Shown: positions 2,796 to 38,860, counted from the stretch's first letter. The stretch is DNA of 38,860 bases from Catajapyx aquilonaris (GCA_000934665.2 JYFJ02003691.1:1-38860); one strand, 5' to 3'. Numbers and translations are program-made. The notes: generated from the sequence alone by a model not told the origin.

Positions 2796-5265
2796 CTAAA
2801 ACCGTAAGGATGCGAGTCGTGAACTTTTCTTTACTCTTTTATCGAAAACTATTCTGTATGTTTTAACCACCTCTTTCTCCACCACTGAATCGTCTGGAAG
2901 TCTCTCAATTTTTCTAGGCTCAACGACAGAGCATGAGCTTTCACCCTCGATTAACAGCATGGTTTTGAGAGTCTCCAAATTGACAATCTGCAATGCTCTA
3001 TAATTCAGTTTGATGCCTTTAACCTTTAGAGACACCGACTCCTCTCCCCGGTCATTTTTGACCACGTATCCGTAATTTTTCGGCCCGCCGGAGCAAAATT
3101 GGGTTATTGATGCTCCCGGTCCGTATTCCTCCAACTCGTTAGTCAGCTCACCTAGGTAATCTCCAGTTGGTAGGGGTGTGTCTCCAGGTCCGGTTACGTA
3201 AATTACGGAATCGGTGTCGCAGTACACCCGATCCTGCAAGTCTTCCAGATATTCGTAGAGTTTCAGGCGAGCTTGGCGGGCCGTTGTGAAAGCTCCGAGG
3301 ATAACATTGGTGGATGGGTGGGACTGTGGAAGATCATCTCTGGGTTTGGAAGTTATGGACAAGGTGTTCTCACCTACAGGTAAAACTGACGTCACCTCAC
3401 AACCAGGGTCTACAACTGTTCCGTTGTATGTACGGCCTTAGTGCGTGGTTTGGCAGGGTTCATCGCATATCGGCCCCAAAAGCTATTCAACATCAGTTTT
3501 GCCAGTGCCCTCAGACCCGAATTCTTGACGATCTTGTCGGGTTCGAGAGTCACTCCCTTGCGAGTCAGGTAGTCAGCCACATACTTCTCCTTGTCATCGG
3601 TTGTCTTGGACCAATCAGGCCATCCCGAGGCTTCCTGCTTCATCTTTTGGAATTTATCAATGTATGACCCAAACAGACCTGTGGTACCAGTTGCGGGGTC
3701 ATACCTTTCGGTATGCTAATTCCACACCTCATACATTTCCCTGACTTTGTACCCCAGCTCCACGGCCTTTCTCAATTCCATGGTAACCCAAGTACCCACC
3801 ATCTCGCGGCCCTTATCTTTGTGAGTGCAGGGGGTGGATTGATTGCACTCCTCTGCACACCTCCGACACAGTGTAAATATGAGCACCCACCTATCTTGCA
3901 ACCTAAAACTGGTTTGTCCAGGTTTGTGGGCGGAAGAACTCGAGACTTGACAATCCCCTCGTGGGAGTCGAGAGAAGCGAAGTCTCGGGTTATCACCACG
4001 AGGGTCCCGACAGGGTAAACACCGTACTTGCATACCCACGGGGAGAGCGACGTTACATCCGCATAGTGTACTTTCTCTCCATCCGCTGGATTATGAAACA
4101 ATTTGTAGGCCCTGTCCTTCCTCCCATAAGCGAGTCTCCCGGGTTGATTGGTTCCATATTGGGAGGGAGGTTTGAGAGAAAGGCACGTAGGATTGGATCG
4201 GTGTGAATTTGCGTACGGAATTGACACTCCCAGATTGTGTGTAACTCCACTTCCCAACCGGCCTGGAGAATTATCTGTTTCTTTGTTTAGTTTTTTGATA
4301 CCTAAAGTCCATCGTGGTAGTAGGATCGTCTTCCAATGCACTCATACGATTTGCGAAGCAAACGGGGCATCCATGAAAGTAGCATATGTAAAATTCGTAC
4401 AGATGCACGGTGTCGCCCTCCTGGCGGTATCCATCCACTTTGTGACGACCCATGGGTTGCTCTAGACCGTTCCCTTGAAAGGACATCGTTGTTCCTTGTT
4501 GATATACATTGGTCGTGATGGAGTGACCACCCTGCTTCAGTTGATGATCAATCCAATGGAGCCACTTCAGGGCAATGCCTGATTGCTTATCGTATCTGTA
4601 TCTTCCAGCAGGGATATTTGCTATGGACTTTTTTGGCATCATGTTACGTCTGTAGGTGAGGTGACATGCCTGAGGGAGGGTTATGGCTACTACAAGGGGA
4701 TCGACTCCATTTTCTGAGAGGAACATTGACCGAAACGTCAGACAAGCACCCTTCAGAATAGCTACATCCGCTGGTCTTTTAATACATACCCTCTTTCACC
4801 CAGTCTTGCTTTCTCACAGACATGCCATTCGAGGAACTTGGCTCTCTCGGCTTCAGACGTACCATCTGGATCTAACTCTGTTAAATTGGGGAGAGGTCCG
4901 ATGTAGTCCTGATTGTCAGAGCGGTTGGCAATATGGGGAAAGTACCCCTTCTCCTTGGGGAGTGCAGACAGCGGCATTGGTAGGAAACTGGCACTGTCCT
5001 TAAAGTGTATATCAGCATCGTTCATGTACATGACTTTTAACCCATTTGCAATAATATCAGGGTCTCGACCCTACTATTCAACCATTTGCTTTAGGATAAA
5101 TTGGCCATCGAAGCCTTTAAGGTTGTGAGCAATCACGATGATATCTTTGGGTTTACGGAACATGCGGATACGCTTGACAAAATCACCAATGGCTGTAGGA
5201 CGTTAAAAAATTTGCTGACGTACTCCACAAGTGCTGCAAAAATGTTCAGTGTCGCAATCGAAGCG
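2796..5265 (-). pseudogene. polB: Polinton/Maverick (adintovirus-like) protein-primed family B DNA polymerase, multiple frameshifts, 5'-truncated
   Basis: Motifs occur in the correct order: IVIAHNLKGFDGQF (Exo II, about 5095-5135), FKDSASFLPMPLSALPK, KGYFPH, VDGY..YEF..CYFHGCPVC (Vsr-like insert), GGRT, YADVTSLSPW, KLMLNSFWG, YCDTDSVIY, GPKNYGY, KVKGI. Confidence 0.93.
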
Positions 5266-5752: not shown

Positions 5753-5945
5753 CTATACAGCTGTCTCCACAGCCTTTACAATCTGCTGTTGGGTGTCTGG
5801 TGGGAGAGCTTCAAAAAGCTTCCCGCAGGCCAGCTGAGCTATCATTTCGGATGAAGCCGTCAGGAAGGATTTTACGAGGGCTTTTTTTAATCGAAACACA
5901 TAAGAGTCCCATGATTCGTGAGGTTGCAAAGTAAGCATAGACTTT
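5753..5945 (-). pseudogene. Possible retrotransposon gag fragment
   Basis: LTLQPHESWDSYVFRLKKALVKSF...LFEALPPDTQQQI resembles the Q..ES...Y..RL gag major-homology-like pattern. Confidence 0.35.
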
Positions 5946-5994
5946 GTTGGATCCGCCAGGTCCGATCGGAACTAATGTACTCCGGAGTCCGGAC

Positions 5995-7020
5995 CATGCA
6001 CGTTTTACACCATTTAGGCCAGTCTGAGGCCTCCTGCTTCATTTCAAGGAATGTGTTGATGTATGAGCTAAACAGATCCTGATTACCCGTGACAGTATCA
6101 TACCTGGCTATTTCATATCTCCGCACCTCGTCAGTCTCTGTAATTTTGTACCCCATTTCTTGTGTCTTGCTGAGCTCCAATGTCACCCACGTGCCACTTA
6201 TCTCCCTCTCGCTATCACTGTGAGTCCAGGGTGATAACTGTTCTACACTGTCGGCACACTTCCTGCATAAAGCGAATAGCAGCTTCCCTTCAATCTTGCT
6301 TCCTAACACAGGCTTGTCTAGAGTGGTTGGTGGTAACACTCGACATTTCACTAACCCTTCAGATGAATTTAGAGGGGGAAGACTCGGGTGATCACTTCTG
6401 GGTGACCTACCGGGAATACACCATACTTACAAACCCACGGATAAAGAGAAGTGACGTCGGCATAATCTACTCGCTCGCCTTCGACAGGTTTGAAAAAGAG
6501 TTTGTACGCCCCAGTCCTTCCTCCCATGAGGCTTTCCCTAGGATTTATTGGCTCCATGCAAGCAGGCAGGGTTGAAATTAATGCGCGGAGCTCCGGATTT
6601 ACTCTCATTTTTGCTCTAAACTTACACTCCCAACATTACGTTAAATTCTACATTCCCAAGCCGCTTAATCATGCATTCCCTCTGCATCGGACGTTGGTAC
6701 CTGACATCCATAGTGGAAAATTGGTCTTCCCCTAACGACACCCTGCGATTCGAGAAGCATGTAGGACTACCATGAAAATAGCAACCATAAAACTCGTAAA
6801 TGTGTGTGCGTCACCTTCCCGTAACCGTAAGTATCCATCAGCCTTGTATCTCAATATACGCTCTTCCGCCCCATTCCCTTGAAAGAACAGCTGTATTTTT
6901 TTCACCAGGGTTTTTTGCGTTTCTAATACACTCTGTCGTCCATTCTCCTTCTTAAGATTGTAATCAACTGCAGCAAAGTCAAAGAAATAGTGGATTACCA
7001 GTATCGTCCACTTCTTAGTC
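5995..7020 (-). pseudogene. polB: Second, diverged Polinton pPolB fragment (Vsr insert to palm region)
   Basis: MEPINPRESLMGGRTG, YADVTSLYPWVCKYGVFPVGHP, GTWVTLEL, YINTFLEMKQEASDWP. Paralogous to about 3600-4600 but with many substitutions. Confidence 0.88.
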
Positions 7021-9280: not shown

Positions 9281-10029
9281 AAATGATGCAGTATTTTTAA
9301 TAAGCCATTTCCGTTATGTACGATCCTTATTACTAAGCAGAACGCATCCAATATTATCGTAAGGTTTTTTTAAAACAATTATTTTGAATGCTTGAGCACA
9401 ATACAGCATAAGCATGACTCACCTCCCTCTTTACTCCAGCTACCTCCAGCGCCACTGACAGTTATGCAACTCATAATTCCGTGAATCCGATCAACATAAG
9501 AGCCACCCTCCAAGACCAATTATCACCTCTCCGTTCCAGGAGGAAGGGCTCTTTGAGTCACCGGCCCCCATCGGGAGTTGTCCACTTCTGAGAGGTCCAC
9601 TGTTGAGGTCTCCCCCTTCGGCGAGGTCCACTATAAAATCCAGGTCTGAAGGCTGGCTGGAGTGCAGGGTGTCCACTTCCCCATTTTCTATGGGAGGAGA
9701 GGACTGCTGGCTCCCCCGCTAGTCATGTTGCCCTTGGTTCTGAAGAGACGAGCCACAAATCAGAATGGAAACTTTGCAAAATTACTCTCAACTTACGCTC
9801 TGAATCCCACCGAATCCTTCCCGGTTCCCGGTCGCAGCCGTGGATTTGCCCCATCGCGAAAGATAATTCGGGACACAGAGAGGTACATAACCTTGCATAA
9901 ACTTACATTCCCCCATATCAGTTCTATGGGATTGAGATCACAGTGGTACGGAGGCAATCGAATTACTTGGTGCCCGCGTATTTTTGCCAGTTCGTCGATG
10001 TCACTTCTTCACTCGCGACTTGCGTTGCG

Positions 10030-10420
10030 TTGCACATGACCCACCGCGAACTTCCTTGGGCAAGTTGCACTGACAATATGTTCATACTCCTGTGGAAGGG
10101 TCGCGCTCTCAATATGTCTCAACCGTTTCTCAATGAGACCAAAGGAACGGTCGCAGGGCAGGAAACTAAGGCCAGGTTCAGGAAATCGGTGTAGTATCTT
10201 GTGAAATCGTCCGAGTCTCACGCATGTGTAGAGAAACTGCGCCATGGCTTGGTTTTTATTTTGTGCACAGCAGTTATCAGAAAACAGATAAATCTCTTGA
10301 CTTTGTCCCAAAATATTGCCAACGTAGTGGTGTAGAAAGCTTATGTAATATGACTTCGTTTGACCCTTTCCTGCCCAAACTTTCATCGTAGTACATGTAA
10401 AAATGTGTCTTTCCTGAGCT
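10030..10420 (-). pseudogene. Sola1-like DDD transposase core fragment
   Basis: FYMYYDESLGRKGSNEV (frameshifted), LFSDNCCAQNKN, HRFPEPGLSFLPCDRSFGLIEK. Confidence 0.75.
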
Positions 10421-11560
10421 TGCTGCATGGATAGCGAAGTTATATTCCCAGAGGGGGTGAGTAGGGAAGTCACGTGTTCACTACGCAAAGTGACGTCAGA
10501 TGCTGATGACGAACACAAAGGCTAATATGCTCTCCACCCTCGATCTCACCCACTCTGGTATGCTGACTCCAGTGGGAGCAGGGTCAACTCTGAGGGAGAT
10601 CTCACGGGCATCGGTCATTAGAACCCTCATGTAAGCCGTCTTCTCATGCAGAAGTGACAGCCCCATTAATTCTGCTGAAGCTGAGGAATCGGGTGACATG
10701 GTTGGATGTGGAGAGGACGGAGATTTAGGGTGTGGAGAATCAGTGGCCCCCATCCCCCCCTTAGCCATGGAGGCACCCCCCGAAGGAAAAGTTCATATCC
10801 AGTGAAGATTTTCATTTTTATTTAAAGGGAGGTGACTGGTAACTGTTTATTATTACCAAATCTACGGAACAAGAGAAGAAAACAATGAGTAACCTGACGG
10901 CGAATGGCATGCTGCTAACGTGAATAATTAACCGGCGGTCATTATTACGGGACGACAGACGCACTGGCTCACGGTCGGCTGTCTCTCGGTGTCAAGCTGG
11001 GTGTCGATGTCGCCCTAGCTGCTAGGAGTCAGGAGCCTTCACCATTCCATCCATTCTCGCCTGCTTCCATCTTCCCGTTTTCTGAGCCGAGGTGCCGACC
11101 AACATGGCCGCCGTCTCCCCCATCTGTCCCCCACCCTGCTTCTTGAAAGTCACGTGACGCCTTCTCCTTAACACTATAACCTCCTTGGGAATAACCTGTA
11201 CAAAATGGGGGAATATTCACTATGCCTACACTTGCACCATCACGTCCTTATTCTGGGATTCACCTTTATCCTCGATGGCGTTAGGGCACTTGATTGACAC
11301 AATAAGAGGGGTACACTATTCAGCCAGTTCCCTCGGTTATCCACTCTCACAAACGTCGGTCTGGTGTGGTGAGTACTCGATGATCGTATGCATTTGTCTA
11401 AGAAGGGAGGTATTAATTCTACTAGTCTACCAGTACATAATTACAGCTTGCATAACATTAACTTACATCATGGGGTAGAGTGAGATTTAGATTTTCAATA
11501 TCTATCCTCTCAGTAGTGATGAAGGCCTTTGTTCTAGAGTTGAGAACTTTTGTCAACATA

Positions 11561-14541: not shown

Positions 14542-15279
14542 CTAGAAGCAGAATTTGTTGCAGATTAGGCTTGTGCATTTTACACTGACACACTTGGACA
14601 TATTACTTATCAATTTCTTCGTGCATTTAATTTATACATATATGCATTATTCGCACATAGAGGCCTACTGTACAGGGTGTTCATGAAAAACACCGACACA
14701 CCTATATCATCCCCGACCTAGGGACCAGACGATCACATTATGTAGAGGAGTGATTATTCCTGGGCCGCCTCATTACCGCGCAAATTGCCTTCAAACAGGT
14801 AGTATAAAATATCCTGGAAGTTAGACCACCCAACGAACCCTTCCCCAGTCAGAAGGGTCTGGAAGGTCTGGGGGCCGGACTTCGTTGGTTTGTTTCCAAC
14901 AGGTGGTAAGGCCTCTATGACTAATTACACCTGTAAATTCTATTTAAAAGTCATATTATCAGTGGTATGTACAATACTACATACATTTTCACACATGGCA
15001 TGACAATCTCTATGTAAATGTACCTTGCACACGGTCCAATACAGTCATAGCGCATTACAAAATTAATAATTCTTATTTTCCCATGGCATTTGTATATTGA
15101 GCCTCGTAGGGTTGTAGAGGAACATCCAGGTCTTCCACGTGGCTATCAGAAAAATCACCCCCGATGAATGATGCTTCCATGTCATCTTCGTCAGATTCAT
15201 CGCAGCTGGAATCTCTTGCCAAGATAATGACGAGGTCATCAAATATTTCCTCATGCGGCTGCAATAATCGTCTGCTTCT

Positions 15280-16300
15280 GCTTTGTTGTCAGGACGATTG
15301 ATGTGCCAACCCGGTGTGCCGTGAGAATAGAGCAGAGGATACTGGAACGCCTCGCACAGAGGATGGAAGGAATTGACAGTGTGTGGCTTTGCTTGGCCCA
15401 CCTTCCAAATGCAAATCTGACGAGGGTTGTAAGCCTCTGACTCCGTGCTGATGACGGCAGCCACCTCCATTATTTGAGGACGGTCACCTAGAACCGGGCC
15501 GTGAGTTGCACGAGTGGTCTCCTCGAAGACGAGGTGCGCGACATCTGAGGGCTCACGACTCAGGCGCTTGAAGTGGTCGATAAGTGGATTATTCGAGTGC
15601 AAGTAATCCGAAATGGCAGAAACGATCCCAGAATCCAAGCTCTCCTGGTTGGCCCAACGCTGCCTCTCCTCACCATCATCAATGTACAAGTACGAGTGGT
15701 TTTTGTAGGGACCACCGTACGACAGGTCAAACACCTTGTGGTAGGTCCTTCCAAGAATTTTTGTAAAAGAGAGACCTGTCCGCGCATGTTGGAACCCGTG
15801 TGGCACTACAAGTGCACTGAAAGCGAAGATGTCGTTATACATCCGCGGCCTCTGCCAGAATTGACCAGACTCATAAAAAACGCCGTCAAGAGGTGGAAAG
15901 TTGACGACGTTGTACGAGCCACGACCGCAGCACCATTCAACCCTGCCTGGCTCCTCCTGAAAAACATGGGCCTGACAGTCCTGGCACTTGTGGCAGTCGG
16001 CTGACAGCAGTGAGGGCGTTTGCAGTCTATACGCGTCGACTTCCTTCAGTTGCTCTCCGCGCCACTCACCGATCCCCGTCTTGCGCCTGAGGTGAGGTGG
16101 CAGGTACCTGGCTACACGAGCTTCATAAGCCCGGCCTGAGGGTCGCACTTGCTTCGGGTTGGTCCGAGAGTAAGTACGCCTAGCGTCTTGCACCGCATCA
16201 GGGTGGTTTTGCTGATAGCGGCACCTAGCCTCAGCCGCCTGGTCTTTGACTGATTTTGCAGTGCACTTAGGGCGCCCACGCTGCTTTTTCTTGGGACGTC
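15280..16300 (-). mobile_element. Helitron RepHel N-terminal fragment (zinc finger plus Helitron-like N region), lacking Rep and helicase
   Basis: CQDCQA..F.EE...CCGRG, RMYNDIFAFSAL, KILGRTYH, LYIDD, NNPLIDHFK, EVAAVI, HPLCEAFQYPLLYSHGTPGWH. Confidence 0.85.
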
Positions 16301-17334
16301 GCCTCCCAACATGGGACGCCTCCTCATCGCAAGTCTCAAGGACAAGCCTGTGAACGACATAAAAACGGAGGACACCGTCCACTGCAGAATGCAAGAGAAG
16401 GAGGTGGGCAAGACCAGCCTGAGTAGAGCACCGGAAAAGACGTGCGAGTTTCGCTCTCATCATGTAAATCATCAGCACTGATGACCCACTAGGTGGCGGA
16501 TAGAAACTCTTAAAGCATTTCAACCTGTCAAAATCTTCAAAGTAGCTCTGGTAGTTTCACTTGACCAGTGCGGCAGGGAAGGAGTGGGAGATACCGAGTG
16601 TCTCTTCATAGGCCCAAGTTGTGATTTTTCACTTAATTTTCTGCCTAGTATATCCAGGTATCCCATAATTGTGTTTTATACTAGCCTGATAGTATGATTG
16701 TTCAATTCAGTCTGTCATATTTTTCTATTGCCAACCACTGCACTGTCAGAATTAAAATTATTTATTACATGTTCATGGCGTTGTGAAACTCTAAAAATTA
16801 CAGAAATGTCACACCAGTCGAGTACCTTCGCAAAAGCTGTGCAGAATTTCCCAGAAGCGGAAAAAATTACCCAGGCTAAGTACTTATAATTGGGTTAGAT
16901 TTCCACCGACGTTTTATTTATGAAAAATTTAAGGTCCTTCGAAAGGCGTCCCCCCTTCCTAGATACTATTGCCTTGGTCTTCATTATGTTGAGTTCAAGT
17001 TTTTTTTTTGCCAAACCATGGTTGAAACAACTAACTAATGGTTGTCATCAGTTGGCTTACATAACTAATGGACCCTTTCTCATTGACAAAAATGTTTGAA
17101 ATTATACCCAAGTGAGGGAGAAACACATCCTCATCAGTACCAACAGACACGCACATGTTTAACCTGACCGCGTCGTGAACGAAGTCGGCAGACACTCCCT
17201 AATGTGTGTCTGGGGAGGAATTCTTGCCAGGGGAGGTATTATTGCCAGGGGAGGTATTATTGTTGAGAATAAAACACCTAGTTTTTCAATATTTGTTTTA
17301 TATTCACTGATATTCCGGGTGAATCTTATCTGGG

Positions 17335-20375: not shown

Positions 20376-21040
20376 TCAAAACTGATTTATACTTACAATC
20401 ACTGATGGACTTACGAAGTTCAATTGCCGGGGTAGTTTATCTTTTATTTCTGCGAGTGCTTTCAGGAATTCAGGTGGGCTTATTACGTAGGGACTCAATT
20501 TACCCATCGCTGCTAAATCAATTGCATGAATGAGCTGTGTAATGTCTGTGTGACACTGGGCCAATGCTGATTCAATTTCTCTTAAGTAATTGTCGATTCT
20601 CTCCAAACTCATTAGATGTCTCTCCAAAACCTTGGGCCAGTGCTGCCAGTGAAACAGTCAAGTCTTTCGTGATGTTTGCTAATCTGTTGTTAAGTCTGGT
20701 ATTCCGTATTGTATGTTCATTTCCTTGGTCTAAGAGGCTCGTCTGGTTTTCTAGTAAATGTAACGTCTCCTCTTTACTCCTATCTAACTCTTCTATTTTC
20801 TCGTTAATGGCGGCGGTTAAGTCTGCGTCATGTAACGTGCCAAACATCCATTTCAGTACACTTCCACGCCCATTCATGAGTCCTCTTCGATTTCGGCCAC
20901 TCCTGACTGTAAACGAATCAGTCAGTCCTGACAACATACCCTCCAATCTATAAGTTTCATTGAGCAAGTGGTCCTTTTCCTTTAACTCTAAATAACTTAT
21001 CAATGCTCTAAATCCTTTGTTACTGCTTATTGAATTTTTT
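20376..21040 (-). pseudogene. env: Envelope fusion protein (baculovirus F / errantivirus Env-like) fragment
   Basis: Furin site RNRR followed by the fusion peptide GLMNGRGSVLKWMFGTLHDAD, a heptad region and GKLSPYVISP. Confidence 0.8.
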
Positions 21041-21061
21041 CCCCGTGACTGTCATTTAGTA

Positions 21062-22957: not shown

Positions 22958-23159
22958 AGAGCGTCGACTCCCCAAGGTGACAATAGCAAAGGCCTCCGAA
23001 GCGTTCGCACTCACCTCTTTATGCAGTGCAATGCTATACCGACTGTTAGACAATCGATTCGCCAACACAAAGTTAAACTGATATGTGGTCTGCAACCACA
23101 AGATGTCACGCAACTGCTCCAGCTAGCGAGGCCAGATTTCTGCTGAGATGATGGACCCC
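22958..23159 (+). repeat. About 200-bp direct repeat shared with 34309-34510
   Basis: agagcgtcgactcccc...gatgatggacccc is nearly identical at both sites. Confidence 0.9.
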
Positions 23160-23662
23160 GGGCGGGGCGAAGACGTGTTTGGCGCCCTCTAGTCGGTGCT
23201 CCGTGGTCCTGGCCCAATCCCATGGTGAAGTAGGAAGGGGCCGGTTGGGCCCAATCGCGGGCACCAGGCTGGCCTCCAGCTCCCTCGGCGGGCCCGGGCG
23301 GAAACGCAGCGGCCACGGCTGCCACGGGTGGTCCACATGGTGGACGTGGCCCCCCGGCGAACCCCTGTCCACTTCCGGGGCGAACACAGGGGCAGGAAAC
23401 TGGGTTCCTCTGGAGCATCTCTCAGGAACAGAAGCGGGTGGGCGGGGCGTCCCATCACGGGCGCCCGCACGTGCAGTCCCAGGACGGCCGCGGCCACGGT
23501 GGTGGCCCCTGGCAGCCGACGAGGCGCCGGCCTCACGCTGGGCGCCGAAAAAGTTTACCCATGGCACACCAATGCATGGCCCATGGAACCCTTCAGGAAC
23601 GGAGTCCTTGAAGTGATAGAATCCCTCACAATCAGACAATGTTGCAAAACATTCACATAGGC

Positions 23663-24525
23663 CAGAGGTTCTCAAACTTTTTGGTCCGCGGAACCCTGAG
23701 CCCGAATCTCAACTCATAATTTATGCTAGGAATACCTAGCTCCAGTGATCCTCTCATTCGACCTTCATTTTGGCTAGGCGTTTTTTCTCCCCGCCTCCTG
23801 CTATTGTTTTTAAGGTACAAAATTTTATTAGAACAGACGTATCAAATAATAAAGACAATGCAAACACTACCTGCTAATGGGATGAGTGCAGTTTCATGTG
23901 ACTGGATATGATGCTTTTTATGTTGGGATCAATGTTTGATAACTGTACCCGAAGGTCAGGGGCATCATTGAGCCTGTTCCTGTACCTGCTCTTTGCATAG
24001 GCATAAGCAGAAAATCCTACCTCACATCTATAGGTCGTCACAAAAGGGAGAAGGGCGAGAACTGCTCTTTTGGGTATGGTTGGGTACTCAGAGCAATCCA
24101 ACCCAAAATTCATTCAGTGACATGGACGCAAATTTGGCTTTTAAATTTGAATCGCATGTAAGTTCAATGGACTTCTCATACACTGGTACAGAAAACGAAG
24201 GAGGTTTCTGACGAACTTCAAATGGGTTTCGTACCCAGTCAGTATCCAGGTTTGTGTCTGGGAAGTACTCTGACAGAGATTGCTCGAGTAGCTTCAAATG
24301 CTGACAAATATTTTCTTTTAACATCATCTCCGATTTGCAATTTATCTTCTCTGACAAACTGATCCAAAAGACCAAATGTTTCTTCTTCAATACAATCTAT
24401 CAAAAAATTAATTCTGGTCTTCAGTGATGTGATTTTATTTTGTCTTGGGCTGAGAAAGTTGTTATAGTTTTCCCCTGCAAAGACATCGTAATTTCACTCA
24501 TTTTCCAAATATGTCAGCGAGCCAA
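23663..24525 (-). mobile_element. hAT Buster/Charlie (ZBED8/ZBED5-like) element, 3' portion with TIR
   Basis: WVRNPF, EFWV...YPTIPKRA...LPFVTTYRCEVGFSA...KSRYRNRL...LRVQLS...HSSH*; TIR CAGAGGTTCTCAAACT at 23663 preceded by acaTAggc. Confidence 0.9.
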
Positions 24526-27560: not shown

Positions 27561-27883
27561 GACGTGTGGCCCGCCTACAGGTTTTGGGCGTATGCCAACA
27601 CGGCCGGTCCCTCAACCGGCCGTGTGACGTTGCTGTGGATATGAATCTTCTGGCGATAGGAAGAAAAGGCGTTTTTGTGATTTTTGGTTTTATTGGCTAA
27701 AAAATAGTTCCCCACACATGATTTACCGGGTTCCGACCGGTTTCGCTCGTAGCGAGCTCATCAGGGAGAATGTTTGGATGTGTGGGCATTGGATCATACA
27801 ACTAAATTACATACTACTAGTACAGGCGGGCGGCCCACCACACTCGTGCGGCAACGGGCCGAGCCGCCGGGCAGAGCGCCTAC
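27561..27883 (+). repeat. About 300-bp direct repeat shared with 35121-35412
   Basis: gacgtgtggcccgcctac...gcagagcgcctac present at both sites. Confidence 0.9.
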
Positions 27884-29189
27884 GACCAGTGGTATCGTCA
27901 CGCGGGTTTGGGAACAATGGGACACACTGATCACCTAAGGGTTTGGGGTAGGTTTACAAGAGACGGCGACTGACGACAGTCAAACAGTACGACCACGAGG
28001 GCTTCCTGCATATGGGGGGATTCCTGAAAGGTACTCCCCCCATAGAGGAAAAGTGAACATAACATGGGTAGGGGCGACAAAATTGGGGACGGGAGATTGC
28101 GACAAGTTGGCCGGCGTTGATGTCCGCAGGGGAGATTGTTGATTTCTGCACCCACTTGAGGGTGGGTGATCGGCTTCGTCCGGCTCCTCGGTCCTCAATG
28201 TGGTGGTTCGTCGCTTGGAGATGTTCGCCCCTACCCATGTTGCGTGGATGCAGTCCGGACTAGGAGTGTGGCGAGGTGTGCCCACCCCTTGTCACAAACA
28301 GTGGAAGCGTGAAATTAAATAGATTCAAAGAAGCAGGAAAGACAAGTCAACTTAAATACATTTATTAGAATAATTTTTTCCATACGTACAGAATCGAGTG
28401 GCAGACTAGGGCAAAACCCCAACCAGACTGCTTGTGTGTGCCGCCTCGAGTTTCATAATTTGCCCAACGGTCAGTCCCACCCTGTGGTAGTGTCTGCTAT
28501 TAATAGTGCAAATTCGTTTCACTGCCCAACTCAACCAGCATGCCAGAACCCAGCATGTTAATATGGTACTTTTTGTGCACCTTATTCACTTCCAATGTTT
28601 CAATTTCATCCCGTATGTACTTGCTGAAGACATCCTCCAAATGTTAACATGGGATGAGCCAAGGTTTTTAAAACCACAAGCCGACTTGTGTGTCCATATT
28701 TATGCAGCTACAAGTTCACAATATTCTCTACTAGAAACAAGCGGCATCAACAGGTGAGCATATCATCATACAATCAAGTAATGAAAAATCGAGTAATGCG
28801 TATTGAAAAATGGATCTGAGAACAATCTATGAAAAATGGCAGTGCAAATTACCTCGACGTCTTTCCTCTGCCATTTTATGGGAACAGGAAAAAAATTATT
28901 TTCCCCTGTGCCTGAATATAAGTCATTTCTTTTGGGTACTCTGAATCTGAAACAAGTCGGAAAGATTACAATAACTCTGGACTCAATACGCATTGGTACA
29001 CCCTGCACATTGTAGGTGAATGCAGTGGTACTGTAATGCTCAAATGGATGTATTTTGTTATTTTTTGGATTCCTTATTGGTGTTGAACTGATTCTCAAGC
29101 CACTTCCACCTGGAATGTATTTTTGGCAGACCAAACTGCAACATCCCTCTACAAACATTTTGGCCAAGTTCCTTGGATTTGAAATGGAT

Positions 29190-29400
29190 CCAGGGCGAAC
29201 ACGTTTGCGAAAAGGTCCTTAGGACTTGAGTAGATTTATTGCTTTCGGGACACTAGACTGCAAACATTTGAAGTGCTTGAAATTACAGGTATTTGTACTG
29301 CTACAACATTTATGACAGGATTTCTACCACCCCAACTACCAAGTTTCTTTTTTTTTTTGGCTGTGCCGCAGTCTCCCAAGGCTTCCATGGTTGTAGCTGC
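29190..29400 (-). pseudogene. Possible decayed THAP domain
   Basis: SSTSNVCSL...RKRVRPGSI resembles the VCSxHF...RLRPGAVP motif. Confidence 0.25.
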
Positions 29401-29868
29401 TACTGTAGAACCATTTCCACAGGTGGGCGTCTTGGACAGGCCTCTGGGATCTGGAAGGACCATTAAAATTTGTTCAAATGTCTGACGCCCTAAACCCAGA
29501 CCTTCAAACACTACCAGAGTAGCATGTAAAACAATATCATGTGAATTTTGTAATCTAAAATGGTTGGTTTGGTTTAGGTTAAATTGCATTGGCACCATAC
29601 TGACCCATAAGCAGCCAAACAAAGAAATCGCTCCTTCACCTTGTCCTTGGTGGGCACAGAGTATCTTCCATCGGCGGAGTCCCGCGTCAACCTTTCTTCC
29701 AGATCATCCAACCTGAAAAGAACATAGGCTACATATAGTATCATTCTATCATAAAGTAAATAATAAAATAATAATAAATAGTATACCAAAACATGGAACC
29801 TAAAAAGCGTTCTGGCAGTGCGAATAGAAAGCTCAAAAGAGACAGAGACAAAACTGCCACTGCAAATC

Positions 29869-30223
29869 TCAGCAATTGGCTCCGCCCAAACAAAGAAGAA
29901 AATGAGGTCCTTGAAGAGGTGACCTTGTTGATACCTCTGACGACAGACGCCTGGGCACCATGAGCTGCCTTCCCCTCTTTGTGGCACTCTTCTCCTCATA
30001 TAGGGCATCCAGTTTTTTAAAGATGTTCCTTGCTTTTGTCCTCAGCCAGGGCAGTTGTTTCTTGAGGAAGATTTTTTTTATTACTACTCCCGCCTTCTGC
30101 TTCCTCATCCCCACTTTCCTCGCTTGAAATAAATTCCCTTTTGAGGATCTGCTTCGCCTTATCTTTGTCTTCTGCTGCCAGGTGGTGAAAACCAGTTTGC
30201 CTTCTTTCCAACTTATGAAACAC
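29869..30223 (-). pseudogene. C14orf93-like / CACTA-associated accessory protein exon
   Basis: ILKREFISSEESGDEE...KQLPWLRTKARNIFKKLD (SSEES..LPW..LD pattern). 30015-30368 is duplicated at 37116-37467. Confidence 0.5.
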
Positions 30224-30381
30224 TATTATATGTAAATTAGAGAGGCATGCTATAGAGCTTATACCTTCGGGGGGGAAGGGGGGGGCTGCTATGGCTGGTT
30301 TAGCATGAAGTAATAAATGTAAAGAACCTTACATGCAATATTCAATCTGTGGAATATTTAGGTAGCGGAAAATAAAATCAC

Positions 30382-30975: not shown

Positions 30976-32304
30976 CACAGTTGCTTTGGCTTCTTCCAAA
31001 TAAACCAAACCAATCTTCTTTGGTCCACTTTTCCGCAGTCTCTCGCCAATTTGTCCCAACAGCCTGTCAACAACTCCCCTGATATTTCCCCTCGATTACC
31101 AGCGGATGACGCCTTCGTAGGATGGGGAATTCATAAGCGTCATCTTCAACACTAGCAGCAGCAGCATCTTTCTTCTCTTCCATCTGTTCTGCAGGCTCTA
31201 GGTGTAGGAGATGTAGGTCACGCTCTAGGTCTAGATGCTGAAGATGTTGTTTACGACCTAGCCCTATTGTGCTGGTTACAATAAAAATGGGAAAGGGACA
31301 TAAGCCATATCAGTGTTCGAAATTGGGATACATAGGCAGGTCGCCAGTGGCACCTGATATGTATAGCATGGTCGCCAAAACTGTATGTCTAGTCGCCATT
31401 ATTTTATTATATATCATTACTGTTCCACAGCATAAAATCGCCTATAGTTATAGTGTACAGCGTTAATATACTTCACAATTCAGAAGCATATTTAATATTT
31501 TACCAACTGCTTCTTTTTAGACACGGAACTGCAATAATAGCCTATACTAATCGCATCAATGATGGATTCGCTTTGTTCCTCGGTGTTGATTTTATGCTGG
31601 CAGACTCCTCTTCTTCCTCGTCAGCTGGTTTGCTGACTTTGGCAATGATACTGCCCACAAAAAAATACGAAATCTTGCGTTTTGCCATTTTCCTCGGGAG
31701 AGCACTTCTCGAGTCCGATCCGCCTCTCTTGCCGACTGCGACTCGAAATCAGTCGAAAGAGTGGAAAGACGATCTAAGACTATTTCGAAACTTCTCTCTC
31801 TCTCCCCCGTCCCCCCCCCCTCCCCCTCAACCCTCAAGGCGTCAATGCACTCATGACTTATACCGGTCATCGACCTTGCAACTTCTTCACCACACCTTCC
31901 CTGTTCCCTCCTCCTAATTATGTCCATCCTGTCGCCTGTCCCGCTTTCCGCTTTCCCCTCCTCTACATCTGGCTGTGACCCCGCGTAGCCGAGTCCTTCC
32001 TGCTTTGTTTCATAAATTTGTATTCCACCCAATTGGTCGTGTTGTTCATCCTTTCCATCCTTTCTCTAGACCTTGTCTCCTTCAGTTCCCTTATCCCCTG
32101 CTCCCTCCGAACGTCCCAAGTCTGCAATTGCCATTCCTCCTGGTTTTCTCTCCCCATTTCCCTTCCCTTTAACGCTTCCCACCAGATATTCCCACCTTTC
32201 CCCCTTTCTTTTTTCATCTCCTCCCATATCTTTCGCAGCATCAAAAGGATTGAGAAAAAACTTACACTTAGAGGGATAAAAACAATTGCAAACTGGTTTA
32301 GAAA

Positions 32305-33931
32305 CTAGAAATAATAGGTTCTCTAAGGCTTGGACTCAGATAGTCTACATCCGACATTTATTGCTCTCAAGCCATCATGAATCCCTTAGACCTCCGCTCT
32401 ACTGTCCCCATTTGAAGCACTCCCTTCCTCTTTTCTACTATGTGCGCCAGATCTTCTTTGATGGCCATTATCTGCTGGAGTGCAGCGAGAGACTTGCCCG
32501 TGGCGACATACCCTGGTCTGGTAGTCTTGACGTCCTCCATCATCCCCTCTGTGAAATGTACATTCCGTTTCCCAGAGAAAACAGGGGCAACAGCAATCTG
32601 TCCTTCCCCTCCTGAGAGAAGATTGGTTTGGCAGGCTGAAGTCAATTTGGCATATAGGGGAGAGTAAAAGTTACAGCAGTGGTGCTTTCCCCCATCTTCT
32701 TCATTTTGTCACCAATGTCCCTTCCAGTCTACCAGTTGCCGGTAGTCGTGATTTCTGACAAGATGCTCAAATCTTCTTTAAACGTTCCAAATATGCCGTG
32801 AAAGACTAGTTGAGCTGCAATGGCAGTATCCATCGATCCATTTAATGTCCAACTGGTTTCGCAGCAGGTTTGGTACGCAGCAAAACACCCAGTTCCAAAG
32901 TAATTGAACGCTTTGATTCCTTCAGTAGGAGCCCTCGGGGTGACACATGTGAACTCTCCTTCTTCGAACTTGGTATACGCTTTAATGTAATCCACTGTCA
33001 ACAGTGCGTGACTGAGCATGGTCAGAGGAAAGAAAGCCCTTTGAGCTTGCCTGGTGGTTGTGATCAGCGCAATGTCAGCCAGAAGCCCCATTACCATCCT
33101 GATTTGGTAGGCGGGTCTTCCTCGAATTGCCATCAGAACCTCGGTGATGCTGGGAATATGGCTCAAAGCTCTGGTGACCGCGGATGTCCACTTTTGGGAG
33201 AAGGGGTCTGTCGGATTAGATCTTGCATGTAGGAGTACAGAAGTCAAAGGCCTAGAGACTGAGCCATGCTGCTTCTTCGCTCTGGTGGGAAACTGATTCC
33301 TTCCAGCAGAATGTGGTGTTTGGGCAACAGTCCGTAATCAGCGACTTTGACCACTGTTTGTCCTTTTCCCTGAGTCCTTCCAATGGGCATCTCTGAATTG
33401 CCAATTCTAAATTCTTTGATCCTGAGAGAAAATCCTGAAGCAAAGTTTAACAGGGTGCTTGCTGTTCCATACCAGTGATTGCGGTCTCCAGCTGCTGGTA
33501 CAGAAAAAGGTTAGCCCAAACATTGCAGCAGGGGTTTTCATGACTTTTTGGAGAGTGACCAAGGTGGTGGTGTAGTTCTTTCCTCCGTGATGGATTGTTG
33601 GGGCTTGAGTCCTCACTTTGTTTATCAATTTCCCCTTCTGGCTGACCTCCTGCCTCAAGAGAGTGAATATGGTGTTCATGATGCTGGTGGCCTGAGTTGA
33701 AATGTTGAGGTTCATGACAGCATTCGAGACTTTGAAAGCCACCAGGAATCTCAGGAATGTGACCAAAATGAACCCCAGGACTTTCTCCTTCTGATCTTGA
33801 TTTAGGTCAATCCGTGGTCTCTTGGATTATGATATCTCTTGGGTTGGATCGTCCGCACTCACTACTCTCTTTTTATGCGTCTGGGCTTCCTCTGCTGTCT
33901 CCATCTCTTCGGGGTTTGGTTCGGTAGGCAT
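32305..33931 (-). pseudogene. NP: Endogenous orthomyxovirus (quaranjavirus-like) nucleoprotein, apparently full length, with stops and frameshifts
   Basis: ATG at 33931; QLVFHGIFGTFKEDLSILSEIT..W, SACQTNLLSGG..QIAVAPVFSGKR, GTV. These parallel influenza NP QLVW..EDL and QISVQPTFS. About 1.6 kb, no introns. Confidence 0.8.
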
Positions 33932-34051
33932 GATTCAGGTGTTAAGTAAGAGTCTGTTTCTACAGGTTCGGTTTAAGAGGAAGAGGAATTTCATGTAACG
34001 TGCCCTTTGTCTTAATACAGGATGTGTTAATGCTGATTATTTAAAAAATAC

Positions 34052-34300
34052 CTCTGCAGCGGAAAGATGCTGCTTCTCTGAGTTCTCTCTCTCCCGAACC
34101 TCCAATTTAATCTTGCAACGATCGGGAAGTGCCTCGATGGTTGTGTTGACCCAGTCCTCCCACTCTGGGTCCCATTGTTGCAGAAGCAGATTGTTTTCTT
34201 CGGCCTCTATCTGAAATGTCTTCTTAATAGCTTGAAGGAGTTCTTCTTTTTCCACATTAAATGTAGCCTTCTCCTTTATGTAGGTGACATGGTATGGCAT
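34052..34300 (-). pseudogene. SAMD3-like N-terminal (PB1/ubiquitin-like) exon, transposon-associated
   Basis: ELLQAIKKTFQI...LLLQQWDPEWEDWVN...LPDRCKIKL; GT donor at 34051. Confidence 0.5.
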
Positions 34301-34567
34301 GTTGTAATAGAGCGTCGACTCCCCAAGGTGACAATAGCAAAGGCCTCCGAAGCGTTCGCACTCGCCTCTTGACGCAGTGCAATGCTATACCGACCGTTAG
34401 ACAATCGATTCGCCAACACAAAGTTAAACTGATATGTGGTCTGCAACCACAAGATGTCACGCAACTGCTCCAGCTAGCGAGGCCAGATTTCTGCTGAGAT
34501 GATGGACCCCAAGAAGTCGAAAGCGAGATCAGTGGATTCTCCAAAGGCGGCCTCATACTGGGGGATC

Positions 34568-35593
34568 TTACGCCATCCAACACCCATAGGATCGTACTTC
34601 ACGATCCGCCGTCTCGGCCCGGATGAGTTCAATCCGGCGTTCGACTATACGTCGTTTTGGTGCCGGCAGGCTGGCCAGGAGCTCAAACCGTTTGGTCGTT
34701 GTTCTGGCCAAGAGCACGCGCCGGTGCCTGTACATTAGGGTCGCCAAGTCCGTGCTTGCGACCCGGAGTAGGGCGTCAAGCTCGTTCCATGCCTCTGCTG
34801 GGAGGAGCTGCATGTTAGGATTATAATGCCCTGGATGGAGCGGGTGGAGGGGGTCTCCTGCCACCACGCTACGCAGTTCGTCATCAAGCACTGTGCGGAA
34901 CCAGAGTTCACTCCGGAACAGTCTGGCCATATATCTTGTGGGCGCGTCCGACGGGGGCCCCAAACTGGCCTTCCGCCAAGAAGCGGCGAATAGCGGTGCG
35001 GCTGTCATGTTTTGGCCAGGGCCCAACTCCATGCCCGGGGCGTTTGCCGCCAGCGTCACTAGGTTAGGTTATCTGGGTCCCCGTAGGGCAAGCCGGTTGA
35101 CCGGCCAGGCTAAGGCCTGGGACGTGTGGCCCGCCTACTGGTTTTGGGCGTATTCCAACACGCCCGGTCCCTCAACCGGCCGTGTGACGTTGCTGTGGAT
35201 ATGAATCTTCTGGCGATAGGAAGAAAAGGCGTTTTTGTGATTTTTGGTTTTATTGGCTAAAAAATGGTTCCGACCGGTTTCGCTCGTAGCGAGCTCATCA
35301 GGGAGAATGTTTGGATGTGTGGGCATTGGATCATGCAACTAAATTACATAGTACTAGTACAGGCGGGCGGCCCACCACACACGTGCGGCAACGGGCCGGG
35401 CAGAGCGCCTACAGGCCGCTTCACAAATTCGGCGGAAGGCTGAGCGGGCGGTAACAGGGCTCGGGCGAAATACCAGCGATTGAGCCACTAGCGCCAGAAT
35501 CGCCCTGGCGGGGCGGAATGCTGGTAGGTGAACCCACAAATTCAGCGGCCTCCGACGAGAAGCTGCTTCTGAAGAAGACGACTCTGTTGGCAT
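34568..35593 (-). pseudogene. Orphan GC-rich gene relic, possibly spliced
   Basis: ORFs 35135-35338 and 34568-35059 share a frame across stops; polypyrimidine-AG acceptor near 35210. No family recognised. Confidence 0.3.
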
Positions 35594-36559
35594 TGTTGGT
35601 GGAGGAAGATCGTGCCGAAGCCCATGCAGCGTTCTTAACCAGGCGTCTTAAACAGGCTCAAAGATTGAAAAAGATTTGCGTGTGGCATATTTGACATTTG
35701 AGCCTCGGTTCATCACACTGTCCCGTGGCCTTCAGGATCAACTGTCCCATTAAAAAGCAGTGGCAGAGATTTATTATACGCGCTACGGATATACTGTATG
35801 AGTGTATGTTTTCTGGAAAGGGAGCGGTTGTAGAACGGCCAGGGGAAATGGGGGAGATGGAGGAGAGGTTGGAAACCATTCCACTTGGTCTTTGGTACAG
35901 TGCTTGAAAAAAACTGCCATGTACCCCCACAAGCAGCACACATGCAGAGCAGTGGGAAGTGTGCACGAGCTTCTGAAAAGAGAACCAAGAAAAAGAACTA
36001 AGCACAAGAGTCACCAAAGGCATTTTCCTAACACATGTTTATGCACCTTGCATGAAGTCAACATGGTCTACTAGCATGACTTATTTTATTACAAATTGGC
36101 ATCATTATTAAAGCTCTTGAATCAGGCTGATTTGAATTTTTAAATGCAAGTTAGTGCAATTTTGATGCCAATTGAAATGATTACATTTGTGAAGCGGGTA
36201 ATATAGTTCAGATGTCAGATGGATACCAGATGCCAAGGGATGCATGCATGCATCAGAGACACATGTTCACCTTTTTTTGGGCTGCTCAGCACTAGTTCAG
36301 AGCAACCAAATAGATCTTATGCCCAACAATGAAAGGTATGGATCAACTGGCTTATGGGAAATAATAGCACACCTTCATCGACGCCGCCTGTATCCTCCCC
36401 CTCTGCTGTTGTTGCCATGATGGTTTGGGGGCCTCTTTCTGCGGCACATCTGGCATTTTTCTCCACCCCAAGCACATCTGATAGAAGAAATAATCAGTTT
36501 AAGAGTACGGCATAAACCCAAGAAAGAATGTAAAATCAGCATGCAGAAATTATAATCAT

Positions 36560-37115
36560 ACCCCAGGTTTCCAAGAAAGGTCATGCAGGTTCCCTTCTCA
36601 TGTCCCCTGGTGTGACAATCGTCACACCAGTCGACTTGGTAGGCAGGGACACCCAGGACTTCCTGTGTGACTCTAGGTAGAGCAAAATCTGGGCTCAGCA
36701 CATTTTTTAGCACATTTCTCAGCAAGCTGGCCCAGATTTTGCTCCCCTTCTTGGAAAAGTGAACACCATCGCATGCCAGCATCATCTTCAGCTTCCGCGC
36801 AATGGGCTGTAGAGCAAAATTAAAATTCCATGTAATTGCATCCTCATGGAAATTTTATAATAAAAAACTCACGCTGATCTTAAGGAGGAACACTCGTGTG
36901 TCCTGGCACACCTTCCTCAGCCGCTGATTCCAAAAGCGCCGCAATCCCTCCCTCATGCAGGACTTGCCGTGTGACCTTCTCCACCCTCGGTGGTACCTCA
37001 CACACGACAAGCCTGCATGAGGGCATTGCCTTTCGAAGTATCATGATGAAGCCCTTCAACTTCTTCAATTCTTTTCTTGCCATCTCCAGGGGATTGGCTT
37101 TGGTGGCGATGTTAG
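36560..37115 (-). pseudogene. SGNH/GDSL hydrolase C-terminal half plus CCHC zinc knuckle, spliced
   Basis: LVVCEVPPR, DGVHFSKKG (block V), CDDCHTRGHEKGTC (CX2CX4HX4C); GTGAGT...TACAG intron at 36807-36872. Confidence 0.6.
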
Positions 37116-37467
37116 TTTTAAAGATGTTCCTTGCTTTTGTCCTCAGCCAGGGCAGTTGTTTCTTGAGGAAGATTTTTTTATTACTACTCCCGCCTTCTTC
37201 TGCTTCCTCATCCCCACTTTCCTCGCTTGAAATAAATTCCCTTTTGAGGATCTGCTTCGCCTTATCTTTGTCTTCTGCTGCCAGGTGGTGAAAACCAGTT
37301 TGCCTTCGTTCCAACTTCTGAAACACTATTATATGTAAATTAGAGAGGCATGCTATAGAGCCTATACCTTCGGGGGGGAAAACCCTGCTATGGCTGGTTT
37401 AGCATGAAGTAATAAATGTAAAGAAGCTTACATGCAATAGTCAATCTGTGGAATATTTAGGTAGCGG
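37116..37467 (-). repeat. Direct copy of 30015-30368
   Basis: Near-identical sequence including the flanking intron-like DNA. Confidence 0.9.
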
Positions 37468-37859
37468 CATTTGCTATTTAGCGTGAAAAAATGGTAACAC
37501 TTTATCTTAGTGTACAGTAGGCCCTACATGTATGGATATATCCATAAATTAGCTATAATTGCAGTATTTTAAATTTAATTAATTTTTTCCTTAATTAATA
37601 AGCCCCAAGGAAAAAAAACAAATTAATTTTATTGCATTACATGTCATTCACACTCTAGATAGAGCACGCACAGGCTGTTGTGACTGAAAACCTTGCCCTT
37701 GTGGAGCGCAATACAGTAATTCACACTAATAACACAGCGCAACAAAAAAAACTTTCGGCGTATTTACTCGGAAACCACTACGCACATCAAGTTAGTGGGA
37801 CCCAAAGTAGCTGGGAAACGCCCGGGATTTCTCTCCCAAAATGTGCAGTGGGTCAGGGT

Positions 37860-38860
37860 GACCTGTCAGTGTGCTGAGGAAGAATACGGTACGCTTATCT
37901 CTCCATCTCCCAGCCAACATGCTTCCACATTTCATGAAATCCACTGTTCCTTTCTTGATGTTTTTACTTTTCAGGTCAACAGGGAACCCGCTAACAATTT
38001 GCCGCACTGTCCCCCTTTCTGCCAGATCGCGGAAGAGCCGTGGTGATGAGTAGAAGTTGTCGACAAAGAGTTGGTGTCCTTTGTTTACGTACTCTTCCAT
38101 CAACTCCATGACGACCCTGTATGCCAAATCATGCTCTGGTTTTCCGGAAGGATCCTTCCCGGTGTAGACCTGGAACAAAATATTGCCCAGAGAACAAGAG
38201 GCAAGTCGTGAAAATAGCAATTATAGTTACCTGAAACTTGAGCACGTAACCTGTGACAGCATCTGCCAGCACCCAAATCTTGATCCCAAACTTCTTGGGC
38301 TTTGCTGGCATATACTGCCTAATTTGCATGCGGCTCTTAGTCCCGACCATTTGTTCATCGAGACTTAGTTGCTATGCGTCCCGGTGAGAACATCAGGGGT
38401 AGCACCTTGGAGATGGCATCAATGAGTGGCCTGACTTTGTAAAGTCTGTCGGGCTCGGGGTTTTGCGTCAGATGGTTGTCATTAACATGGAGCACAGACA
38501 GAATGTCCGTAAATCGGTTGCGGCTCATGACATTTCGATACTAGTCACAGCGGGTCATTGGGTCTGTACTCCAATAGTCCGACACCTGTGACTTTCCTTC
38601 AATTACCATTGCCAGACAGAGCCCCAGGAATCCCTGAAATTCCGGATCTGTAACGGGCTCCCAGTTCTTCATATTTTTTTCTTTTCTTCCCATCCAGACC
38701 TTCTTGCGTTGCATACAAGTTTGTCTGCTCAACCAGCTGAGTCATTACTTTGTCATCGAAGAACTTATGAAAAAGTTCGAGTGGTGTCATCTCTCCATAG
38801 TTACTGTTTTTGATGGCCCTATTGCCACCAGTAAATGGAACCCCTCAAAAACGCACTCGT
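37860..38860 (-). pseudogene. piggyBac (PGBD4-like) transposase with an intron, frameshifted
   Basis: TPLELF..FF, MSRNRF, LSLDEQMV, QYMPAKPKKFGIKIW, LFVDNFYSSP, WRDKR; 61-nt GT-AG intron at 38170-38230 joining LKFQ|VYTGK. Confidence 0.92.

Follow-up and report, generated by a model that had tools for sequence, protein, structure and literature searches.

A probable endogenous copy of an orthomyxovirid nucleoprotein gene, disabled and nearly complete, among co-oriented transposon relics in Catajapyx aquilonaris DNA

A stretch of 38,860 nucleotides from Catajapyx aquilonaris (GCA_000934665.2 JYFJ02003691.1:1-38860; the whole stretch is called the window below) carries on its minus strand, from 33931 to 32298, an intronless relic of ~1.63 kb that is spread over three reading frames. 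The relic is very probably a non-retroviral endogenous viral element (EVE), namely a disabled and complete or nearly complete copy of a nucleoprotein (NP) coding region, derived from a deep lineage of the orthomyxovirid radiation of arthropods. An earlier note on this DNA, written from the sequence alone, had placed a near full-length orthomyxovirus NP, integrated in the genome, at 32305..33931 with a start codon at 33931. The location holds, with a minus-strand ATG at 33931-33929, and the identification is supported by tblastn, phmmer, profile matches to PDB sequences and unitigs from DNA reads.

All nine full-length NP relatives compared with the window by tblastn are colinear with the relic, from homologue residue ~1 to ~525 (E 2e-29 to 4e-61). 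Specifically, frame -1 (33904->32657) corresponds to homologue residues ~1-400, frame -2 (33516->33250) to residues ~146-235, and frame -3 (32654->32310) to residues ~408-525. Because the alignments are colinear and ordered, the relic has no introns and spans the protein from the first residues to close to the end. The same nine relatives find no second NP match elsewhere in the 38.9-kb window. The stop-to-stop frames of the relic, spread over the three frames, are 35, 139, 88, 202 and 113 amino acids (aa) long. The coding region contains four in-frame stops (33829-33827, 32731-32729, 32369-32367 and 32360-32358) and three frame changes (near 33507-33515, 33250-33252 and 32654-32657), and its terminal stop is at 32300-32298. 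These features agree with the earlier description of an intronless open reading frame (ORF) of about 1.6 kb that is broken by stops and frameshifts and ends plausibly near 32305; the tblastn alignments extend to 32310. As judged from its sequence, the relic is dead as a gene.

The whole coding relic (32298..33931, minus strand), delimited from start codon to terminal stop by the nine colinear alignments, falls into eight pieces on the same strand. Piece 1 (33830..33931), assigned by frames and tblastn, comprises 34 aa from the ATG to the in-frame stop at 33827-33829. Piece 2 (33515..33826; 104 aa) continues in the same frame up to the frame change near 33507-33515, and its basic block SKRPRIDLN pairs with SKKPKIELN of the relative P0002. 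Piece 3 (33253..33507; 85 aa) is in the second frame, contains the strongly conserved block HHILLEGISFPPERRSSMAQSLG, is 49-51% identical to the relatives P0015 and P0006 over 79-89 aa, and ends with the frame change near 33250-33252. Piece 4 (32732..33250; 173 aa) returns to the first frame, holds QLVFHGIFGTFKEDLSIL and runs to the stop at 32729-32731, and piece 5 (32657..32728; 24 aa) continues in its frame to the frame change near 32654-32657. Piece 6 (32370..32654; 95 aa), in the third frame, holds QIAVAPVFSGKR and is followed by the stops at 32367-32369 and 32358-32360, between which lies the 2-aa piece 7 (32361..32366). Piece 8 (32298..32357) consists of 19 aa, beginning with MSDVDYLSP, and the terminal stop at 32298-32300. 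The block that starts with MSDVDYLSP, which follows the stops at 32367 and 32358, aligns weakly with the C-terminus of P0015. Because this conserved block, 'MSD(V/L)...' in the alignment, runs on past the stop at 32367, that stop is probably a secondary lesion, and 32305 is nearer to the ancestral end than the first stop met. For alignment and tree building only, we used a read-through of 536 residues that joins the eight pieces with an X at each of the seven breaks.

The two motifs that the earlier note had quoted as NP-type both occur in the relic: the 202-aa frame contains QLVFHGIFGTFKEDL, and the 113-aa frame contains QIAVAPVFSGKR. Both coincide with the most conserved consensus blocks of the family. 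An exhaustive phmmer search of 1.84 billion representative proteins with the 202-aa frame alone returned 212 matches at E<=1e-3; of these, 82 reach E<=1e-10 and one reaches E<=1e-30, with a best value of 1.3e-31, and many of the matched proteins are 500-600 aa long. By this measure of sequence similarity the matches far exceed chance. In word-indexed searches with the same frame, the best single match is P0001, a 416-aa product of Colias eurytheme (41% identity, E 7.7e-30), and a further match among longer proteins is a 550-aa protein encoded on a 1910-nt contig.

An alignment of 41 full-length relatives (A1) was used as the next query and retrieved 35 proteins. They include the 'Nucleocapsid protein' of Hemipteran orthomyxo-related virus OKIAV183, Lepidopteran OKIAV1731 and OKIAV178, and Coleopteran OKIAV184. 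Also retrieved were nameless proteins whose contigs, at 1.65-2.5 kb, have the length of an NP segment, and annotated products from the Colias, Arctia and Euphydryas genomes. Some of these products are fusions with transposase or phosphatase domains, which is what genomic copies would be expected to show. Hemipteran OKIAV183 (9e-38), Lepidopteran OKIAV1731 (6e-39) and Coleopteran OKIAV184 (2e-29), three of the nine relatives, each align with the window by tblastn, colinearly and across the three frames. Searched against PDB sequences, the A1 profile matches solved NPs and little else, namely Thogoto virus NP (8cjw, 1.7e-13; 8ryt, 4.1e-13), influenza D NP (5n2u, 1.1e-8) and influenza B NP (3tj0, 2.5e-8), the Thogoto and influenza D/B matches ranging from 1.7e-13 to 2.2e-7. 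The earlier note had named a best profile match outside the orthomyxovirids as a finding that would speak against it; the best matches are the Thogoto and influenza NPs. The family blocks FHxxFGTxKEDLxIL and PxFSGxR pair with Thogoto NP, and the aligned block includes both quoted motifs. When the relic is added to A1, it retains 15 of the 17 near-invariant residues (one of the others falls at a break and one is changed) and 48 of the 54 columns with at least 70% consensus. These sequence links through its relatives indicate that the relic is an orthomyxovirid NP.

The predicted structure of a relative points the same way. An AlphaFold model of P0002, built with A1, has a mean predicted local distance difference test score (pLDDT) of 82.9 and a predicted template modelling score (pTM) of 0.82. 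Compared with BFVD, the model has 24 matches at E<=1e-3; all 22 that carry a name are orthomyxovirid NPs, and two are without a name. The top match is Phasmatodean OKIAV167 (2.2e-37, template modelling (TM) score 0.86), and other leading matches are Hubei earwig virus 1, Soybean thrips quaranja-like virus 1, Jingshan fly virus 1 and Bemisia tabaci quaranja-like virus 1. In the PDB the model matches the NPs of influenza D, Thogoto and influenza A/B viruses, with influenza D the best (4.5e-11, TM 0.57). The Thogoto (8cjw, 8ryt) and influenza A/B/D NPs, which are reached by both the family profile and this predicted fold, are nevertheless very distant, with 10-15% identity in the structural alignments of the P0002 model and TM scores of 0.46-0.57. 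A model of the relic's own 173-aa piece, for which alignment A2 covers piece 4, reaches a pLDDT of 81.8.

The relic has no close relative among the proteins found. Its full-length identity to the 41 members of A1 is 35.3% at most, with a median of 26.7%, and its local identity to any relative is at most 41-50%. A tree was built with the quick search of IQ-TREE (LG+C20, 524 columns) from 87 rows, comprising the relic, all 79 proteins of at least 430 aa among P0001-P0179, and, from the shorter proteins, seven best hits or genome copies only. In this unrooted tree the relic forms an unresolved branch within a 61-row group (SH-aLRT 86), with an end branch of 1.06 changes per column, and lies outside a 49-row clade (SH-aLRT 97) that holds OKIAV183/184, OKIAV178/1731 and all lepidopteran genome copies. 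The earlier note had proposed an NP phylogeny that includes Quaranjavirus, Thogotovirus and influenza; the tree places the relic deep, and classified NPs of these three groups are not among its rows. The sequence comparisons thus point to a deep lineage that has no close described relative. Since the conserved sites are kept while identity is low, the distance reflects mostly viral divergence and not decay. Full-length identity of no more than 35% and the deep lineage together imply that the source virus is undescribed, as had been suggested as a possibility.

The source virus very probably belongs to the arthropod 'orthomyxo-related / quaranja-like' radiation and, taken broadly, to the Orthomyxoviridae. 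Kaefer et al. 2019 (PMC6932829; this and the other papers below are cited from extracts) proposed one genus, O1, for OKIAV183 and OKIAV184 and another, O2, for OKIAV181 and OKIAV178, and by its position in the tree the relic belongs to neither. The earlier term 'quaranjavirus-like' therefore survives in part: the quaranja-like viruses among the structural neighbours of P0002 agree with its loose sense, and in the tree the relic is not in the clade that holds the named OKIAVs, the genus Quaranjavirus itself being outside the comparison. 'Quaranja-like' seems to fit only as the loose label that depositors use for the insect radiation.

Reads from host DNA contain the relic together with its flanks. 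Four runs recorded as DNA, all from one sample and one study, contain 86-87% of the sampled words of 31900-34400. In each of the runs X1-X3 a single unitig of 2126-2133 nt spans 32207/32213-34338 with 0 differences, and depth is higher at 32207-32242 and from 34309 onward, both of which are repeats. Unitigs and depth together define a unique stretch of ~2.07 kb (32243..34308, unstranded), which consists of the relic with 3' and 5' flanks of 55 nt and 377 nt, respectively, and lies between multi-copy repeats. The repeat abutting the 5' flank (34309..34510, unstranded), recognised by repeat comparison and the depth step, is a 98% copy of 22958-23159 (family D3). Non-viral DNA is thus physically continuous with the relic on both sides, and the flanking repeats recur in the window. 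The unitigs and the disabling lesions exclude a replicating virus and make a chimeric assembly unlikely, and the doubt raised earlier over the junctions is answered, for this one sample, by unitigs that cross into both flanks without a difference. Run X5, from another sample with the same species label (32 million letters), covers only the repeat at 31956-32004 and is too small to judge.

The word 'segment' in the earlier note goes further than the sequence shows. The coding region alone is recognisable, and no segment termini could be recognised at the relic. One candidate pair of termini, GTAGAAAC (33963-33956) and GTTTCTA (32305-32299), was rejected, as the match is only 7 nt long and the second copy overlaps the terminal stop codon. 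Searches for nucleotide sequences of related segments, whose untranslated ends could have been compared, found none. Pfam finds no other orthomyxovirid domain in 172 stop-to-stop ORFs of the window, which is weak evidence given that its influenza models do not detect the NPs of this radiation well. Immediately 3' of the relic the minus strand is purine-rich (31600-32250; 66-82% purines down to ~31850), and in the DNA runs 31900-32069 and 32207-32242 have a depth several-fold above that of the relic and are thus multi-copy.

The relic lies among degraded transposons that share its orientation. As the earlier note had stated, the EVE runs in the same direction as the transposon relics: all eight homology-backed pieces, which represent about 6-7 independent elements, are on the minus strand with the EVE, and the plus strand has none. 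Among the 76 plus-strand ORFs of at least 75 aa there is no credible domain, the sole row being a sub-threshold helix-turn-helix (HTH) on the strand opposite the relic. ORFs of at least 150 aa number 21 on the minus strand vs 6 on the plus strand, and the repeat families of the window comprise 13 direct and 0 inverted. Repeats D8/D9 and D2/D11/D13 (95-100% identical) bracket the NP relic, with 27561-30368 facing 35121-37467 at a spacing of ~7.1-7.6 kb; the paired blocks are 27561-27864 with 35121-35401 and 30015-30368 with 37116-37467. Their similar spacing suggests one segmental duplication.

The neighbouring relics, all on the minus strand, are of several classes. Pfam recognises DNA_pol_B_2, a protein-primed type-B DNA polymerase, at 3413-3715 and 6372-6635, and two degraded copies of such a polymerase, of the type carried by Mavericks/Polintons, extend over 2796-4795 and 5887-6635. 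DUF7869 is found by Pfam at 10009-10521. A Helitron-like frame of 497 aa, identified by homology, occupies 15063-16556, and the relatives that match it best come from Frankliniella occidentalis, Macrosteles quadrilineatus and Phyllotreta striolata (47-51% identity). Pfam also detects a Baculo_F envelope-protein fragment (20379-20657, E 1.3e-5); in this relic region (20379-21051) the neighbouring 159-aa frame has an RNRR that is similar to a furin cleavage site. The Baculo_F relic probably represents either an errantivirus-like retroelement's env or a different viral relic, and we take its F-type envelope gene to be of the kind found in insect errantiviruses. Three pieces of piggyBac transposase (37792-38220, 38132-38371 and 38602-38844) were identified by Pfam and homology. 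Based on the insect relatives of the Helitron and on the F-type envelope gene, the host is probably an arthropod. A GC-rich island (23000-23700, 55% GC) has long open frames on both strands, in several reading frames, and its edge, 22958-23159, is the repeat that abuts the unique stretch of the relic. Rfam has no match in the window.

An ORF scan shows an intact ORF of 87 aa (MPYHVTYIKEK...; 34037..34300, minus strand) directly upstream of the relic and inside the same unique stretch. It starts 9 nt from the repeat edge at 34309 and ends at a GT, a possible splice donor. It has no Pfam match and no PDB sequence match, and atlas searches gave only weak leads to small domains of the ubiquitin-like, CIDE-N and PB1 types (score 0.88-0.91). 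The ORF could be an exon of the host or of a transposon, or a co-inserted piece of another RNA. An intron joining it to the relic (GT ~34051, AG ~33964) was considered and rejected, as the joined frame stops after five codons and yields no fusion protein.

Negative-strand RNA viruses of this kind have no DNA stage, and therefore a retroelement enzyme would have had to reverse-transcribe the NP (+)-sense RNA. This would have taken place in the nucleus of the germ line, followed by insertion of the copy. The relic would now act only as RNA, within a co-oriented graveyard of transposons. Plus-strand transcription, as in flamenco-like uni-strand clusters, would then yield PIWI-interacting RNAs (piRNAs) antisense to NP mRNA, and by analogy with such clusters we give about even odds that the relic feeds antisense piRNAs. 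In a survey of arthropod genomes, primary piRNAs came from 81.4% of the EVEs that lie in piRNA clusters, vs 35.7% of those outside (10.1101/396382). The orthomyxovirid EVEs of Chilo suppressalis, including NP copies that match OKIAV178, give piRNA-like small RNAs, as far as the extract of PMC12810003 describes them. In Aedes aegypti, according to the extract of PMC7161354, a co-oriented flamenco-like EVE cluster is transcribed as one antisense precursor that gives phased piRNAs. A bolder version, in which the window is part of a flamenco-like piRNA cluster and the relic is the only trace so far of a deep, unsampled quaranja-like branch, and a source of antisense piRNAs against its survivors, seems unlikely. 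A present antiviral effect of the relic would be quite improbable, because a near-identical virus must still circulate.

A number of observations weigh against parts of this interpretation. Among the four larger pieces only piece 6 matches Pfam Flu_NP (PF00506), below threshold (13.1 bits vs a cut-off of 25, E 0.034) but where such a match would be expected along the model (417-449 of 534). The Flu_NP model is built on influenza NPs and, as just 2 of the 41 relatives reach it at E<=0.01, is too narrow for the arthropod radiation. The model of the 173-aa piece has no significant fold match: the best in Foldseek is influenza D NP at E 0.55, and VIA-align scores NPs at Z 3.5-4.2 and unrelated helical proteins at up to Z 5.5. 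This piece is a poor fold query because it is a fragment of a two-lobed fold, and the NP assignment rests on sequence links through relatives. There is no target-site duplication, as the flanks share no word of at least 7 nt; there is no poly(A) remnant at the relic, the only A-run (A6, 32214) being inside the multi-copy repeat; and Pfam finds no reverse-transcriptase domain in any ORF of at least 75 aa in the window. The marks of insertion may have eroded, and the retroelement route is purely inferred. All supporting DNA runs come from one sample and study, possibly the assembly's own source, and hence are not independent. The host group is deduced only from transposon relatives at 47-51% identity. 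The co-orientation counts about 6-7 independent relics, and a segmental duplication may have inflated the number of direct repeats. The piRNA step rests on the layout of the locus and on analogy.

The viral origin of the relic is shared by a reading in which the NP-derived EVE is wholly inert, neither transcribed nor made into small RNAs, and the common orientation is an accident of local duplication. We put its chance somewhat below even. The repeat blocks spaced by ~7.1-7.6 kb, which suggest one segmental duplication, fit this reading, as do the minority of arthropod EVEs outside piRNA clusters that yield primary piRNAs (35.7%; 10.1101/396382) and the view of the authors of PMC7161354, in the extract cited, that small RNAs from EVEs may be a by-product. 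A local accident accounts less easily for about 6-7 independent relics of unrelated transposon classes, together with the EVE, on one strand, or for the lack of any inverted family among the 13 repeat families, a layout that is a hallmark of uni-strand clusters.

Three other explanations deny the integration, the decay or the viral identity of the relic. Viral cDNA or RNA contamination, wrongly joined to host repeats in the assembly, is highly improbable: the supporting runs do come from one sample and the flanks are multi-copy repeats, which are error-prone in assembly, but no replicating virus is compatible with four stops and three frame changes, unitigs of three DNA runs join the relic without a difference to 377 nt and 55-90 nt of unique non-viral DNA, and Pfam scans of the ORFs find no other viral segment in the window. 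Domestication, with an NP-derived protein still made by the host, would explain why conserved residues are unusually well retained (15/17 and 48/54), and some insect orthomyxovirid EVEs lie in transcripts with intact ORFs, according to the extract of PMC12810003; here the longest open frame is 202 aa and the coding region has four in-frame stops and three frame changes, which makes this explanation extremely improbable. The third explanation takes the family for a cellular one, or for one of a different virus group, and supposes that the NP label is a mis-annotation spread among metatranscriptome proteins. Consistent with this, 39 of the 41 relatives miss Pfam Flu_NP at E<=0.01 and most relatives are without a name. 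However, the family profile matches the solved Thogoto and influenza NPs with E down to 1.7e-13, the predicted fold of a relative matches solved NPs with E down to 4.5e-11, and the contigs that carry relatives measure 1.65-2.5 kb, as an NP segment does, so that we give mis-annotation hardly any credence. A decayed, integrated NP copy is the reading we prefer.

Such a copy belongs to a known kind of element, and orthomyxovirid NP EVEs and their piRNAs are already well documented. A tick orthomyxovirid example was reportedly included in a 2010 survey of EVEs. Extracts of later work document orthomyxovirid EVEs, mostly derived from NP, in ticks and insects (PMC10675110, PMC6580184, PMC4384744). 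CsOrEVE4-8 of Chilo suppressalis are, in the extract of PMC12810003, DNA copies of the NP coding region among transposons, as is the relic; many of these copies and of those named next are partial, whereas the relic is near full-length. The copies that carry the annotation 'unnamed protein product' in Colias eurytheme, Arctia plantaginis and Euphydryas editha represent the same viral gene and the same type of event. These lepidopteran copies cluster with Lepidopteran OKIAV178/1731, whereas the relic lies outside their 49-row clade. The nucleocapsid proteins of OKIAV183/184 (O1) and OKIAV178 (O2) are colinear with the relic over ~500 residues and have the same conserved blocks. OKIAV183 (P0010) is 35.0% identical to the relic over the full length; the OKIAV gene is a viral RNA segment, whereas the relic is a disabled DNA copy. 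Drosophila flamenco and the flamenco-like EVE cluster 38 of Aedes aegypti (PMC7161354, extract) carry dead transposons, in Aedes also EVEs, on one coding strand, so that a single transcript runs antisense to every element. The window shares this layout, over 38.9 kb, and the comparison is one of layout alone.

The relic is of interest for being nearly complete in length, for its deep place in the phylogeny and for a setting that is strictly co-oriented. As an NP fossil from an otherwise unsampled lineage, it would help to calibrate and root trees of the Articulavirales, and its sequence would help to avoid false 'virus discoveries' in host transcriptomes. The locus is a candidate for testing EVE-derived piRNA immunity beyond mosquitoes.

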